A DNA stretch of 45,326 nt from sequence record PX405663.1; one strand, 5' to 3'. The notes below the pieces were generated by a model. It made no database searches and was not told where the DNA came from. It saw only the letters and a list, made by a program, of their open reading frames with translations. How positions within the stretch are numbered: position 1 is the first letter of the stretch; every line of letters begins with the position of its first letter. The position numbers and the translations under genes are program-made. Origin of the DNA: a phage. Positions 13,317-43,253 of this stretch are shown piece by piece.

Positions 13317-14403
13317 TCAATATATGGCGGATCGCATGATTCGCCGTCACATCTTCACCCAGCGCCTGAGTAATGACCAGGCGCGGAGGGTGCTGGCTAT
13401 GTGGGAGAAGTTCCGGCCCACGTTACTGGGTAAGCTGACCGAGTTACTTGATGGCAAAAAGTCCATGAATAACAAAGCACTTACCACACTGTTAACGCAA
13501 CTCGACAAGACCGTCAAAACGGAACTGCGCACCGAGTTTAAGGCGTTGGCTGAAAGCCTTCAGGAGTTCGCCGACACCGAGGCTGATTATCTCGCCGACA
13601 CATTAACGGCAGCGATCCAGCCGGTAGTCGCCGTACCGGCGGTCGAGGTGGTTGGCGTAGTGACCGGCTCGCAGATCGCAGCAACGGCAATGAAAAACCC
13701 GTTCCAGGGCAATACCATGATGCAATGGCCCGACTCACTTTCTGAGTGGACCAGGACGCAGATCGGTAATCAGGTGCGGGCGGGATTCATCCAGGGCAAG
13801 CCAACGATGGAAATTATCGCGGACGTGAGGCGCGCGCTAGGCGGTCGTAGTGCGCAAGCTATATCGAGCGTTGTTAAGTCCGCAGTCAACCACTATGCGG
13901 CGACCGCCCGCGAATTAATGGTGAAAGCTAATGACGATATTCTCGAAGGTCGCCAATGGTTATCTACATTGGACACGCATACTTCTCCCATGTGCCAGCT
14001 ACGCGATCGCCTGTTTTATCCGGTTGATGTTACTCCCGATACGAAAGGGAAGCGAGGCGGAAAAGTGGTGGCGGGATCACAATATGGCGCCGGTCCGGGC
14101 AAGCTACATTATTGCTGCCGCTCGACGGAGACGTGGAAAGTCAAAGGTATGGAAGATTGGCCCAGTGGTAAGCGTCCGGCACTGAAGGCCGACGCAGGCA
14201 GATTGCTGAGTGAGCAGGTCGACGCGCAGACTGATTTCTTCTCATGGGTGCAGCGCCAGCCGCGCCATATCCTGGAGGAATTATATGGAGTGCAACGCGC
14301 CGACCAGATTATGCGCGGCGTGAAAGTGCCGAAGATGTTCGCCGATTCTGGTGAACTGATGTCTATTGCACAGCTTAAAAACCGGGGGTTATGGCGTGAT
14401 TAA
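13300..14403 (+). CDS. head morphogenesis / minor head protein
   Basis: 367-aa ORF directly after portal, overlapping its end; position and size. Confidence 0.6.
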   Translation: MAKTINQYMADRMIRRHIFTQRLSNDQARRVLAMWEKFRPTLLGKLTELLDGKKSMNNKALTTLLTQLDKTVKTELRTEFKALAESLQEFADTEADYLADTLTAAIQPVVAVPAVEVVGVVTGSQIAATAMKNPFQGNTMMQWPDSLSEWTRTQIGNQVRAGFIQGKPTMEIIADVRRALGGRSAQAISSVVKSAVNHYAATARELMVKANDDILEGRQWLSTLDTHTSPMCQLRDRLFYPVDVTPDTKGKRGGKVVAGSQYGAGPGKLHYCCRSTETWKVKGMEDWPSGKRPALKADAGRLLSEQVDAQTDFFSWVQRQPRHILEELYGVQRADQIMRGVKVPKMFADSGELMSIAQLKNRGLWRD

Positions 14404-14725
14404 ATACGCAGCGATTGGGCTGGTTATCGGTCTGGCGGTAGGATTCTGGCTAGGTGACTCCTATCGCGCTGGCGTAGTGGCGGAGGCGGCGCAAGAAGCG
14501 CAAGCCCAAGCCCAACGGCAGCAAACTAAAGTTGTTGAGCGCTCCGTGCAGGCCGAACAAGCCCGCGACGTAGAATACCGGACTATCACGAAAGAGGTTG
14601 TTAAATATGTTACGCGCCCTAACCGCCCTGATTGTAGTTTTGATGCTGAGCGCGTGCGGATCAAGCAACGTGCCGTTGATGCCGCTAACGGAGTCGGCGC
14701 TGCGACAGCCGTGCAAGTTCGATAA
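14396..14725 (+). CDS. i-spanin (Rz-like): N-terminal TM helix plus periplasmic coiled coil; start uncertain (track ORF 14366..14725 begins at TTG, GTG at 14396 has a GGGGG SD)
   Basis: AIGLVIGLAVGFWLG TM then AEAAQEAQAQAQRQQ coiled coil; o-spanin gene starts inside it in another frame. Confidence 0.55.
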   Translation: MIKYAAIGLVIGLAVGFWLGDSYRAGVVAEAAQEAQAQAQRQQTKVVERSVQAEQARDVEYRTITKEVVKYVTRPNRPDCSFDAERVRIKQRAVDAANGVGAATAVQVR

Positions 14726-14837
14726 CCCGTCCGCGGACCCCGACGAAGATTTGATGATTGACGTGAAAAATATGGAGTGCGGGGCGAGGCTGAGGGCGCA
14801 GGTCCTGGAGTTGCAGCAAATAATGAAGGGGCCGTAA
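14598..14837 (+). CDS. o-spanin (Rz1-like outer-membrane lipoprotein), overlapping the i-spanin gene
   Basis: 79 aa; signal peptide with lipobox LSAC; Pro-rich mature part; AAAGAGG SD. Confidence 0.6.
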   Translation: MLNMLRALTALIVVLMLSACGSSNVPLMPLTESALRQPCKFDNPSADPDEDLMIDVKNMECGARLRAQVLELQQIMKGP

Positions 14838-14849
14838 TGGCCCCTTTTT
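14826..14849 (+). terminator. rho-independent terminator at the o-spanin stop
   Basis: GGGGCCGTAATGGCCCC followed by TTTTT. Confidence 0.5.
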
Positions 14850-14851
14850 CG

Positions 14852-15616
14852 TTATCGCGGAATACCGCAAATCTCGTTGAGAGTTTTCACATCCAGCGCC
14901 ACCGCCGTGGATTTTGGCTTGTCCGGGTAAGGGATGAATTGCTCAACTTCAGGCCATGCCTTAATCAGCTTCTTGTCAGTATTGTGCAGGTCCAGCACAC
15001 CGGTAACGGTCAACTTGAACGCGTCATACTTAGCCCGCAACTCACGGCGGGCCTTGTCGTTACGGTCCAGGCGCTTACAGAAATCATGATCCGCCGGGAA
15101 ATCCGCACGGCAGTGTGGCTTATAGATCGGCAGCGCTTTCCCGTCCTCGTCCACTTCGCACACTGACGCGAGCATAACTTCTTCAAACCCCGGTACGATA
15201 TCGCCTAAATCGGGGGATAGCTTATTCATGTATTTATATTCCCAGTATCCGCGATGTGCGCGGCATTGGCGACCGTCACCGCTCAAGGATAAGGTGCGAA
15301 CATTTCCGCCTGCGTTGATTTCGAAAGTGGCGTCGTAAACGCTGCCGATACCTTTCGGGCGGTCGGCGTCATAACGATATGTCGCCTTGTTGGTGTAGAC
15401 GCAGACGCCGTACATCTGCGACGGGTCATCGCTGATTGCCTCGATACGCTCGCGGAGCGCTGCGAACGTGCGAATGCCTTCCGGCATACAGTCCAGCGTA
15501 ATGGCGTACGCCAGGTCGCGAGAGTCCATCATGATTTGTTTGGCTTCGGTTGCGATTTCGTGGTCGCGCAGGATGTTAGCCAGAATCTGATTTTTAATGT
15601 CTTTCGTCAGTCTCAT
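14852..15616 (-). CDS. hypothetical protein (254 aa), antisense island within the morphogenesis module
   Basis: ORF track; GAGGA SD 8 nt upstream; no motif recognised. Confidence 0.6.
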   Translation of the reverse strand: MRLTKDIKNQILANILRDHEIATEAKQIMMDSRDLAYAITLDCMPEGIRTFAALRERIEAISDDPSQMYGVCVYTNKATYRYDADRPKGIGSVYDATFEINAGGNVRTLSLSGDGRQCRAHRGYWEYKYMNKLSPDLGDIVPGFEEVMLASVCEVDEDGKALPIYKPHCRADFPADHDFCKRLDRNDKARRELRAKYDAFKLTVTGVLDLHNTDKKLIKAWPEVEQFIPYPDKPKSTAVALDVKTLNEICGIPR

Positions 15617-15697
15617 TTTTGTGTCCTCGTTGTTGGGGCTTTCGCCCCGTTTGGTTTAGTTAAACTTGATGTTGCCGCCAATAGGGTGCTTTGTTAG

Positions 15698-16210
15698 CTA
15701 CAAACGCATCGGCATGATAACAAGGAAGGCACCGCCTTTGAACAGCACACGTGTCGCCTTGTCTACTCCCTGAAATTCCAGTTTTAAGCTATCAAACTTA
15801 CGGTCGAACAATTTAGCAATTTTGCAGGCGTCGGACAGGTATACCCCGGCAAACCCTATAGCCTCCACTTTAGCGCTGTCGAAAGACGTAACACGACGCC
15901 AGTCTGGGAATCTGCCGTCTATGATCTCTACGGGTATGGTACCGATTAATACGTCTTTACTATCAAAGAACGCAGCGGATGTGCCGTCTATGTTGCAGTA
16001 TTCGAATTTTGTAGGTAAGCGGCCTTTAATTGCTACTATTTTACTTTCACCTTCGGGAATAACCGCGGACCCGCAGAACAAACGATGACCGTCGGTGGCC
16101 ACGATGAATCCTTTCTCGTCGAAAAATACACCCTTCAGATAGTACCGCACGTCATTAGTTGCGGCGCACATCATAGCGGCTTTAAGATCGGCATAGTTAA
16201 CTTTAATCAT
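15698..16210 (-). CDS. truncated DnaN-like protein (DNA polymerase III beta sliding-clamp domain fragment, about 170 aa)
   Basis: Track ORF 15698..16657 trimmed to the ATG 7 nt after GAGGA; VRYYLKGVFFDEKGFIVATDGHRLF, IIDGRFPDWRRV and C-terminal VIMPMRL closely match conserved E. coli DnaN segments. Confidence 0.7.
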   Translation of the reverse strand: MIKVNYADLKAAMMCAATNDVRYYLKGVFFDEKGFIVATDGHRLFCGSAVIPEGESKIVAIKGRLPTKFEYCNIDGTSAAFFDSKDVLIGTIPVEIIDGRFPDWRRVTSFDSAKVEAIGFAGVYLSDACKIAKLFDRKFDSLKLEFQGVDKATRVLFKGGAFLVIMPMRL

Positions 16211-16213
16211 TGT

Positions 16214-16262
16214 CATTTCCTCATGTTGGTGTGCAACCAATATACTGCAACCAACATACGCA
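16214..16262 (-). promoter_or_regulatory. tandem TATTGGTTGCA promoter-like motifs driving the antisense DnaN-like operon
   Basis: Minus strand reads TATGTTGGTTGCAGTATATTGGTTGCACACCAACATGAGGA; 27 nt identical to 5143..5169. Confidence 0.55.
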
Positions 16263-16358
16263 ACGCAAGCGAATTTTGCGATTATTTTTATCGCTGATAA
16301 TATTAGAAGCGTGAAGTCAAGCGGGTGGCCCGCTTTGCCACAATCCCAGGGGGATAGC

Positions 16359-40961: not shown

Positions 40962-43253
40962 TTATTTCCTGTATCTGTACATAATGTCGCCTTCCGCGGC
41001 AAGCGGGAAGCCTTTCGCCCAAACAGGCAGGTCGCACATCAGCGCGCATAGCTCCTCGGTCGTGTAGTCGTCAGTATCCGGAACTTCGGTGATCAATTCA
41101 TCGTGCACTGACAGGACGATCTCATAGCCAGCAGCCTCAACGCCGGGCATGGACCACGCGAGGATATCGCGACACAGCGCCTGTACGATGTTTTCCGTCA
41201 GTTTGCCGCCGTAGGTATACTGGAAGCCCCACTGGCGCGTCGTCTGATTCTCGCCCTGGTATTTGATGCGGGTGCTGGTGCGCTTCTTGCCGGTGTCTTC
41301 GTCGATCTCGGTCGTGACAGACAGCGCGATGCCGGGGTAGCTCATGATGCGCCCTGACGGCAACTCAATTTTCAACCACCACCCCGCGGCGTTCGGGTCG
41401 TCGCGCTCCTCGTCGAAGGTGGGGTCGTGCTTCGCCTTCGTGCGGACTATCTTGAGCGCTTTCTTGCCATCCGGGCGAACGTTCGCGCCAGCCCAGTACG
41501 CTTTGCCCGGATTGCGGATCGCGCAGAGCACCGCGTCTTCCAGTTCAGCCCAAAATTCTACCGTCTTCGGGTGCGACTCGCGCCACATTCGTTTGATCGC
41601 ATCACACGTCAACCATACGTTTTTCGGCAGTATATAAGTTGGGCGCTCGTCCTTCTTGCCAGGCTTCGGCGGGCGCTTCGCTTCGTTGATCCGGGCGTAC
41701 TCATAACCCCGTTTCGCCGCCGCCCAAATGTGATCGGGGAATGTGCCCTTCATCACTTCAGCCATCGCGTAAAGGTCGAGGCCCAGGTTTTTAGCGAACT
41801 GCAAGAACGCCGCCACGCCACCACCATAGCCCAGGCCCAATTCGCACGCCTTACCGATCTGGCGTAAGTCTTTGCGGTTGGCTTTAATGTATTCCGGGTC
41901 GAGGCCAAACATCTTACCGGCAGTTTCACAATAGATATCGCGACCCGCCCTAAACACCATTAGCGCGGTTTTCTCGCCAGCGATCCAGGCGAGGCCACGC
42001 CCTTCTACGTTGGAGAAGTCCGCTACGACAAACTTCTTACCCTTCGCCGGAATAATGCACCCGCGAACAGTAGAGGCCGTTAGCTTCGATATGTCATACG
42101 CCCAGTGTGCGGTCCCGCGTAACAGGGAGTTGATGCCGTTGGTGAGCATGTGCGACCGCACCCAAAACGCGACGTCGCTCTCGCCATCCCGGCGCTTAAT
42201 CTTCCCTTCGTGGTCGTCGCTATACTCGCCACGTGCCAGGTTTTGCGGCTGGAAGCCCTTTCCGGCCCAGCGTAGCGTGCGCTTTGCCCCACCATACTGA
42301 AGACAACCACGGCGGCGTCCATCGGCAGACAGCCCATTTACGAGCGGATTGTACTTAGTCGATGCCGTTGATGACGCGCCGAGGCGCATCTCGATAAGCA
42401 CTTTGCCCTCGTCGGGGAAGTCCGGGTCTTCCAGCAGTTCGTTAAGCGTGGATTTCTGCGCGTTGTGTATTGTGAACGCAGGTGCGAGGTCGCGCAGCGC
42501 TGGCAGGAAGTCATTGCCGGTCAGCTTACCGCCGAAGCGCTCCCATGCTTCTTCCTTCAATTCTTCCTTATGCGCCTGCACCGCTTTGATCGCGGCGTTA
42601 GCCAGGTCAACGTCCACATAGAAGCCGCGGTCGTTAATCATCTGGTCAATAAGCAGGATTTCATCTTCCTTCGGCGTGTTGCCCCAGTCTGGTATGCGCC
42701 AGTAGACTTCACGCATAGCAACAATATCCAGCGCGGCGTAGCGCAGGAATTTAGCCCACTCCTCGGGGTGCGTCTCGCGCGTATAGCGACGGATTTTGTA
42801 GGTCTTAGGGGTTGGCTTACAGAATCGTTTGATTAGCGCCTTGCCAGCCTTATCCTTCGCGTGCTCTGCGTCAACGCCCAACACCTGGCACTGCATATCG
42901 AGGCTACCCGGCAGCGCGTGGCGAAAGGCCATAATCATGGTATCTTCGATCTGGCCTACCGGCAGGTCAATGCCCCACTTCTCGCGAATAACCAGGCGGT
43001 CAAACAGGAGGCCGTTAGCCATCACGATTTTTGCTTTCTTGCGGGATACCCGGCGGAGCGCCTTGCGCAGTTCACGCGGCATTGTGGGGGATTCGGTGCA
43101 ATCCCATGTCTGTACGCGGCCCTCGTCGATGGCGTATGTGCAAATCATAATCTCGGTAGTTGGGTGTTCCGCGTAGGCGTATGCGCCCACTTTCTTCAGG
43201 TCCACCCCGCTAAATGTCTCGGTATCGAGAAAAAGGCGTTCGAAGTCTTTCAT
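40962..43253 (-). CDS. family A DNA polymerase with 3'-5' exonuclease domain
   Basis: 763-aa ORF; N-terminal LFLDTETFSG (Exo I DxE), C-terminal polymerase region; GAGGA SD. Confidence 0.9.
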   Translation of the reverse strand: MKDFERLFLDTETFSGVDLKKVGAYAYAEHPTTEIMICTYAIDEGRVQTWDCTESPTMPRELRKALRRVSRKKAKIVMANGLLFDRLVIREKWGIDLPVGQIEDTMIMAFRHALPGSLDMQCQVLGVDAEHAKDKAGKALIKRFCKPTPKTYKIRRYTRETHPEEWAKFLRYAALDIVAMREVYWRIPDWGNTPKEDEILLIDQMINDRGFYVDVDLANAAIKAVQAHKEELKEEAWERFGGKLTGNDFLPALRDLAPAFTIHNAQKSTLNELLEDPDFPDEGKVLIEMRLGASSTASTKYNPLVNGLSADGRRRGCLQYGGAKRTLRWAGKGFQPQNLARGEYSDDHEGKIKRRDGESDVAFWVRSHMLTNGINSLLRGTAHWAYDISKLTASTVRGCIIPAKGKKFVVADFSNVEGRGLAWIAGEKTALMVFRAGRDIYCETAGKMFGLDPEYIKANRKDLRQIGKACELGLGYGGGVAAFLQFAKNLGLDLYAMAEVMKGTFPDHIWAAAKRGYEYARINEAKRPPKPGKKDERPTYILPKNVWLTCDAIKRMWRESHPKTVEFWAELEDAVLCAIRNPGKAYWAGANVRPDGKKALKIVRTKAKHDPTFDEERDDPNAAGWWLKIELPSGRIMSYPGIALSVTTEIDEDTGKKRTSTRIKYQGENQTTRQWGFQYTYGGKLTENIVQALCRDILAWSMPGVEAAGYEIVLSVHDELITEVPDTDDYTTEELCALMCDLPVWAKGFPLAAEGDIMYRYRK

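Follow-up and report, generated by a model that had tools for sequence, protein, structure and literature searches.

A phage-encoded, shortened DnaN homolog that appears to keep the partner-binding pocket of the sliding clamp but not the ring

The DNA analyzed here (the window; all 45,326 nucleotides of sequence record PX405663.1) comes from a Dhillonvirus, an HK578/EP23-like siphovirus of E. coli and Shigella. As a whole, the window is ~90% identical to Escherichia phage AV129, with blocks rearranged, and a 5-kb query around the gene described below matched 159 phage records at 80–99% identity. In Dhillonvirus that gene, here called the mini-clamp, lies antisense in the head-gene block, with the Rz/Rz1 spanin genes on one side and the scaffold gene on the other, at a variable accessory locus. 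The features of the locus in the window are:

14825–14847, no strand: bidirectional terminator-like hairpin that seals off the antisense accessory locus from the Rz/Rz1 spanin pair
14852–15616, minus strand: Nmad5-domain gene, 254 aa (Pfam PF18757, E 1.7e-59)
15634–15649, no strand: GC-rich hairpin GGGGC-GAAA-GCCCC, past the mini-clamp stop and ahead of the Nmad5 start
15698–16210, minus strand: mini beta-clamp coding sequence, from ORF and translation, 513 nt including the TAG stop at 15698–15700
16217–16222, minus strand: Shine-Dalgarno GAGGAA, from the sequence, 6 nt before the mini-clamp ATG at 16210
16232–16254, minus strand: two direct copies of TTGGTTGCA (16254–16246 and 16240–16232), flanking the -10 hexamer and kept in related phages
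16239–16268, minus strand: putative sigma70-like promoter, with -35 TTGCGT (16268–16263), an 18-nt spacer and -10 TATATT (16244–16239)

The mini-clamp product is 170 aa long (MIKVNY...VIMPMRL). A second possible ATG is present at 16216; the start at 16210 is favored because homologs are mostly 169–171 aa in length. The Shine-Dalgarno sequence is kept in five related phages, one of them with a different upstream gene. The promoter was spotted by eye and placed with a coordinate script, the automatic scan having made no call, and its sequence is kept as TTGCAx-17/18-TATATT in AV129, EP23, and L014. Judging by these signals, the gene would probably have a promoter of its own that host RNA polymerase uses, and the TTGGTTGCA repeats around the -10 may serve as the operator site of a regulator, from either phage or host.

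Several forms of the accessory locus were observed within the genus: Nmad5 alone in StarDew and most other members, Nmad5 together with the mini-clamp in the window phage and EP23, the mini-clamp alone in AV129, and another small gene with the mini-clamp in the Dhillonvirus designated L012. A close copy of the mini-clamp was present in ~16 records, as compared with the 159 sharing its flanks; the gene is dispensable within Dhillonvirus. Nmad5 was considered as an obligate partner of the mini-clamp and rejected, given that StarDew carries Nmad5 without the mini-clamp and AV129 the mini-clamp without Nmad5. Because each gene occurs without the other, Nmad5 is best described as an independent cassette of a shared accessory locus; beside mini-clamps outside Dhillonvirus it was not found, the pairing being confined to the genus. 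The same GC-rich hairpin lies in L012 directly upstream of the mini-clamp ribosome-binding site, and its position in the two phages makes it look like a boundary element of exchangeable cassettes. In Dhillonvirus, a single Lys-to-Glu change in nmad5 allows escape from Tmn defense, and the gene, toxic when cloned, can be removed (PMC11846954). There, nmad5 is CDS6 or CDS7 and, in one phage, the scaffold gene is CDS9 (PMC11846954); from this order, the published nmad5 appears to occupy the same locus as that of the window. The mini-clamp was also considered as the published anti-Tmn factor of Dhillonvirus and rejected, since that factor is ORF35, a helical rod and thus a different fold (PMC11846954).

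Two further observations concern other genes of these phages. The Rz/Rz1-type spanin pair (14366–14725 and 14598–14837, both on the plus strand, Rz1 being embedded and bearing a lipobox-like LSAC) is located within the head-morphogenesis block, at a distance from the lysin gene, with the terminator at 14825–14847 following it. The family-A DNA polymerase is 763 aa in the window (40962–43253, minus strand) versus 1062 aa in AV129 (L001 21928–25116); the window protein lacks an equivalent of residues 471–734 of the AV129 polymerase, and this hints at an insertion of intein or homing-endonuclease type in AV129.

A first-pass annotation, made from the window sequence without database searches, had described the mini-clamp as a phage-encoded, shortened homolog of DnaN, the beta sliding clamp, and had proposed profile searches and structure prediction as checks. 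Both bear the description out, with similarity far beyond chance. As a single sequence, the mini-clamp matched only beta clamps in the PDB, at E 6e-8 to 2e-7 (phmmer; residues 12–116 against DnaN 140–254), and a profile of 50 family members reached E 5e-21 (hmmsearch). Alignment by hhalign to a reference sequence of E. coli DnaN, whose numbering reproduces the canonical residues and whose segment 140–254 agrees with the PDB alignments, gave a probability of 99.25% and E 5.6e-20. The sole Pfam clamp domain matched, DNA_pol3_beta_2, scored 22.1 bits (cut-off 27), and TIGR00663 scored 25.7 (cut-off 137.65); because it falls below both cut-offs, the protein is a DnaN homolog and not a full DnaN. 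AlphaFold2, with the family alignment as input, returned a compact, confident monomer model (pLDDT 93.3, pTM 0.89), the structural neighbors of which are clamps throughout, and BFVD contains many phage proteins of 170–260 aa with the same fold (TM up to 0.87). The homologous clamp fold, built of beta-alpha-beta-beta-beta repeats, is present in the mini-clamp. Recent capture from a host was rejected as its origin, because identity to E. coli DnaN is only ~30% and the family is deep and diverse.

The annotation had singled out three segments as resembling DnaN (VATDGHRL, DGRFPD(W/Y)RRV, and a C-terminal MPMRL). All three are located in the 170-aa product, which divides into two parts:

15869–16210, minus strand: residues 1–114, equivalent to DnaN domain II (DnaN ~131–254) plus the domain II–III connector (hhalign, phmmer, hmmsearch)
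16079–16102, minus strand: VATDGHRL, residues 37–44, identical to E. coli DnaN 170–177
15890–15919, minus strand: DGRFPDWRRV, residues 98–107, versus DGRFPDYRRV at DnaN 238–247
15701–15868, minus strand: residues 115–170, a single beta-alpha-beta-beta-beta repeat in place of domain III (hhalign, AlphaFold model)
15701–15715, minus strand: MPMRL, residues 166–170, matching DnaN 362–366

The domain II part holds RYYL (residues 22–25) as well as VATDGHRL and DGRFPDWRRV, and hhalign places residues 8–114 colinear with DnaN 138–254. Residues 115–170 are then aligned to DnaN 314–366, DnaN 255–313 being deleted. The retained repeat carries IGFxxxY (with the N320/Y323 equivalents), A152 (the S346 equivalent), and the C-terminal VIMPMRL; these signature residues (IGFN..Y, A at the S346 position, and V(I/V)MPMR) are those of the DnaN C-terminal repeat. 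HMMER gave the same solution as hhalign along with a colinear alternative into DnaN 255–290, which arises because the halves of domain III are internal repeats. Following the connector, the AlphaFold model contains one helix and three strands only, and domain III has therefore been cut from two beta-alpha-beta-beta-beta repeats to one. Domain I is missing. The product is indeed, as had been claimed, too short for a three-domain clamp, with domain I and DnaN 255–313 absent from its 170 aa. In the model, a short, 9-residue, Pro-containing loop (residues 62–70) takes the place of helix alpha2 of domain II, and there are two long channel-type helices (residues 6–15 and 122–135) compared with the twelve that line the DnaN channel. 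The head-to-tail dimer interface of DnaN, formed by domain I and the I272/L273 side of domain III, was not found in the mini-clamp, although the HMMER alternative leaves some doubt on the helix-loop. Because domain I, half of domain III, and one channel helix have been lost, the mini-clamp does not qualify as a canonical ring clamp; what is left amounts to a quarter-ring arc, consisting of domain II and the domain III half that packs against it. The earlier suggestion of a dominant-negative subunit is unlikely for the same reason: with domain I absent and the I272/L273-bearing half of domain III deleted in the hhalign alignment, it lacks a structural basis.

Conservation was examined in 50 family members, which share 33–94% identity with the window mini-clamp. 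The positions best conserved are those lining the clamp-binding-motif pocket. Eight columns are invariant (Y24, L25, D40, G41, H42, R43, G99, and P102), corresponding to DnaN Y154, L155, D173, G174, H175, R176, G239, and P242, respectively. Fourteen pocket residues are at least 96% conserved among the 50: the equivalents of R152, Y153, Y154, L155, T172, G174, H175, and R176, and likewise those of P242, R246, Y323, M362, P363, and R365. Identity to E. coli DnaN amounts to 79% over 22 pocket columns versus 23% over the 143 others (permutation p < 1e-5). The exceptions within the pocket are L177 of subsite 1, which is Ala in 24 of the 50 members, N320, which is Ala in the window phage, and M364, which is variable. 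At the level of sequence, the mini-clamp thus appears to keep the hydrophobic pocket (subsites 1 and 2) that receives clamp-binding motifs, in agreement with the earlier claim that the retained segments build the partner-binding pocket. Other residues, F45, K130, A132, and K133, are conserved specifically within the family; K130 and K133 lie on the helix which in DnaN faces the channel. The pI is 7.7 at the family median and 8.6 in the window protein, as compared to 5.55 in the equivalent part of DnaN. The basic pI and K130/K133 suggest DNA binding or a second interface, neither of which a pure decoy would need. Informative pairs among six Dhillonvirus copies yielded dN/dS values of 0.17–0.28; the mini-clamp gene is under purifying selection (dN/dS ~0.2).

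A profile search covering 1.84 billion cluster representatives recovered 2,611 of them at E ≤ 1e-10, and the best 150 of the 2,611 are all stand-alone proteins of ~165–220 aa that cover the whole profile. Relatives are encoded in 248 GenBank phage records; the hosts are mostly Salmonella, Escherichia, and Klebsiella, but also Serratia, Proteus, Vibrio, Burkholderia, and Acinetobacter. The protein, earlier called a fragment, is not a random one; it belongs to a large, ancient, stand-alone family under purifying selection. GenBank labels its members "DNA polymerase III beta subunit" or "beta clamp domain-containing protein", the AV129 record adding "possible moron"; the earlier remark that the function was not an annotated one is accordingly only half right, since a DNA polymerase III beta subunit is what GenBank already names. 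Full-text literature searches returned no paper dissecting the architecture of the mini-clamp or testing its function. The resemblance to DnaN is already known, and the pocket-only architecture of a large phage family is new.

A conflicting label is in wide use. The mini-clamp belongs to PHROG 3007 (E 1e-55), for which PHROG, RefSeq, and Pharokka give "RusA-like Holliday junction resolvase"; RefSeq examples are NC_016566.1 EP23p08, NC_005887.1 gp31, and NC_021563.1 Eta_0010. In a Pfam search, the mini-clamp had no RusA match even at E ≤ 10, and with all structural neighbors being clamps we rejected this identity. The RusA label is erroneous and continues to spread, now standing in hundreds of RefSeq and Pharokka annotations.

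Outside Dhillonvirus, the mini-clamp belongs to early or replication operons. The gene order is SSB-ParB-miniclamp-helicase in Serratia phage Eta and DNA polymerase-miniclamp-endonuclease-helicase in Burkholderia phage BcepC6B. In the 47-kb siphoviruses of Salmonella and Klebsiella the mini-clamp follows a ParB-like gene; elsewhere it lies between cro and an O-type replication gene in a lambdoid prophage (cro-miniclamp-x-repO), and at the end of a pL-type recombination operon in a Serratia prophage next to guaA. An annotated DNA polymerase is absent from Eta and from Salmonella phage STGO-35-1, and no polymerase gene was found within 8 kb of the mini-clamp in lambdoid prophages. Across 79 IMG/VR loci, with seven lineages sampled, the mini-clamp had no universal neighbor; ParB-like and SF2-helicase genes recur beside it in some lineages only. 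Clamp-binding motif patterns (QL[SD]LF, QxxLxF, and PIP-like) were sought in the ORFs of the window, in proteins with replication roles from AV129, BcepC6B, and Eta, and at the ends of 2,041 neighbor proteins; no terminal motif proved to be conserved. PADLOC gave no defense-system match for the mini-clamp.

Some details of these genomes deserve separate mention. In the Serratia prophage next to guaA (L094/L095, 3103–3369 and 8001–8534), a homolog of Pol III theta (PF06440, Hot-like) and a mini-clamp are encoded in one operon, so that two imitations of host Pol III holoenzyme subunits occur in one element. SNF2/DEAD-type helicases end in a PIP-box-like or clamp-motif-like sequence with a basic tail in AV129 (QDDLMEYMKAKKARK; L001 19549–20973) and in BcepC6B (QDILLDAMKRRAGR; gp28, L010 26110–27489), and an acidic SSB-like tail is seen at the end of several more replication proteins. 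Both kinds of ending may be docking peptides.

From the structure and distribution of the family we infer what follows about peptide binding, ligand identity, oligomeric state, and physiological outcome. Our preferred reading, to which we assign a probability of about 40%, is that the mini-clamp would be a free-standing clamp pocket module that captures host clamp-binding motifs as a DnaN mimic, off the ring. Its pocket would bind, in solution, the QL[S/D]LF-type motifs carried by host proteins, the possible clients being Pol III alpha, epsilon, clamp-loader delta, Hda, MutS/MutL, and Pol II/IV/V. The outcome would be that low-abundance clamp clients are re-routed or titrated toward phage DNA replication, the replisome not being fully shut down. 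A conserved pocket on a non-ring anatomy argues that motif binding is the conserved activity. That the pocket should be DnaN-identical across phages of Escherichia, Salmonella, Klebsiella, Serratia, Vibrio, and Burkholderia fits a ligand constrained by the host clamp, and since neither a phage neighbor nor a terminal motif is conserved, a host clamp client is the more likely ligand. For the many carriers that must use host Pol III, recruitment, re-routing, or selective titration of low-abundance clients also makes more sense than a blanket poison. Some evidence runs against the pocket module, however. Pocket residues are also the best conserved of DnaN generally, and their conservation may be partly structural; L177 is replaced by Ala in 24 of the 50 members and N320 by Ala in the window phage; the family is basic (median pI 7.7 versus 5.55), with K130 and K133 conserved; Pol III alpha and delta, both needed by polymerase-less carriers, would be bound by a soluble pocket as well; and the gene is dispensable within Dhillonvirus, which tells little about the process it serves. 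Given that the pocket residues are conserved, a decoy for clamp-binding motifs, as the first-pass annotation had put it, stays a live hypothesis, alongside that of an adaptor.

That adaptor would be a non-ring processivity factor, with the concave, helix-bearing face binding DNA and the pocket holding a polymerase or helicase: the host Pol III core in polymerase-less phages, and the phage family-A polymerase or an SF2 helicase in Dhillonvirus and BcepC6B. Such an adaptor, working without a clamp loader, would be akin to herpesvirus UL42/UL44. We regard it as possible but doubtful. It would account for the replication-module contexts beside polymerase or helicase genes, for a pI above that of the DnaN equivalent, and for the conserved K130/K133 on a channel-side helix, and carriers that depend on host Pol III stand to gain by recruitment and not by inhibition. 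However, only two channel-side helices are left and the basic shift in pI is mild; no clamp-binding motif was detected at either end of the phage polymerase, no partner gene co-occurs consistently, and most Dhillonviruses have the same polymerase and helicase without the mini-clamp. A stronger form of the decoy, in which the soluble pocket sequesters Pol III alpha or delta and so halts host DNA synthesis, is unlikely. Phage N4 gp8 brings about such a shut-off by way of delta, and Twort gp168 by way of the clamp. Conservation of the pocket is compatible with such a replication poison, monomeric beta binds delta far more tightly than the ring does, and the Dhillonvirus mini-clamp is an antisense accessory gene with its own putative promoter in a phage that has polymerase, helicase, and primase. 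Yet Eta, STGO-35-1, and the lambdoid prophages, apparently without a DNA polymerase, must use host Pol III and clamp loader, and in polymerase-less carriers the gene is co-transcribed with replication or recombination genes; blanket poisoning of the replisome would be self-defeating in the many carriers that lack a DNA polymerase of their own.

A decoy directed at defense, the pocket absorbing an immune effector or a rival mobile element's protein that reaches phage DNA by way of a clamp-binding motif, is distinctly improbable. Such a role would suit a gene that is patchy within its genus and sits in a variable accessory locus, one common to Nmad5, mutation of which lets Dhillonviruses escape Tmn (PMC11846954). 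No defense system with a clamp-binding effector was identified, however, and PADLOC found no match; the published anti-Tmn protein is a different one, ORF35; and outside Dhillonvirus the setting is replication operons. It is very unlikely that the mini-clamp is a true clamp, whether as four copies joined head-to-head and tail-to-tail in a 12-repeat ring or as one copy that caps or pairs with a host DnaN protomer. Three repeats in each of four copies would equal the 12 repeats of the beta2 ring, AKLFDRKF (consensus AKLFNPKF) resembles AILSNEKF of DnaN (residues 271–278, including I272/L273) in the HMMER colinear alignment, and the UV-induced, two-domain beta* of E. coli is reported as a clamp. 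Set against these points are the absence of domain I and the loss of one channel helix, the placement by hhalign of the retained repeat on DnaN 314–366 and not on the interface half, and a compact, confident monomer model (pTM 0.89). As for a decaying, functionless remnant of a captured dnaN, shortness and scores below the Pfam and TIGRFAM cut-offs would be expected of one, but such a reading is scarcely credible: dN/dS is ~0.2, diverged stand-alone homologs of the same length number in the thousands, the promoter sequence and Shine-Dalgarno are conserved, and the fold is compact and confidently predicted. The purifying selection and the 2,611-cluster family effectively refute it.

A wider proposal, which we offer tentatively and with more doubt than conviction, is that short clamp-pocket modules would form a widespread and so far unrecognized class of replisome hijackers, free copies of the docking site that capture host Pol III core or clamp-loader subunits by their clamp-binding motifs and couple them to a phage helicase-primase or origin complex, or else form a new two-faced ring. 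If true, it would explain how polymerase-less phages with their own helicase recruit the host polymerase. The pocket of the beta clamp is a hub for at least a dozen bacterial replication and repair proteins, and an antibiotic target; a phage family without the ring but with the pocket suggests that viruses exploit this hub by mimicry and not by binding alone. The ligand of the mini-clamp would show how polymerase-less phages commandeer Pol III or, alternatively, how clamp clients are disarmed, and the protein itself could provide assays of pocket binding and the design of inhibitors with a natural minimal scaffold.

Among known systems, the natural reference is DnaN itself (Pol III beta; PF00712/PF02767/PF02768, TIGR00663), which has 366 aa to the 170 aa of the mini-clamp. 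DnaN forms a head-to-tail dimer ring, whereas the mini-clamp is without domain I, has one domain III repeat and one channel helix fewer, and is more basic. E. coli beta*, a UV-inducible short DnaN made from an internal start and reported to act as a clamp, is a natural form that has likewise lost N-terminal sequence and starts, as the mini-clamp does, close to where domain II begins; beta* retains domains II and III in full, however, whereas the mini-clamp lacks half of domain III and constitutes a separate, ancient gene family. Herpesvirus UL42, UL44, PF-8, and BMRF1 are non-ring factors with the clamp fold, each made of two complete domains, with a strongly basic face that binds DNA and a viral polymerase dedicated to it; the mini-clamp differs in having ~1.5 domains and in being carried by many phages without a polymerase. 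Phage P1 Hot is likewise a host Pol III holoenzyme subunit copied into a phage, and it engages the host replicase, but Hot is a full-length substitute for theta, whereas the mini-clamp is a truncated derivative unable to substitute for beta. Phage proteins directed at the clamp or the clamp loader are also known: Twort gp168 and G1 ORF240 bind DnaN, and N4 gp8 binds clamp-loader delta. The mini-clamp would share their point of attack. All three are, however, unrelated small binders of the clamp or its loader, and Twort gp168 and N4 gp8 are functional opposites of the mini-clamp, which imitates the clamp's own binding site.
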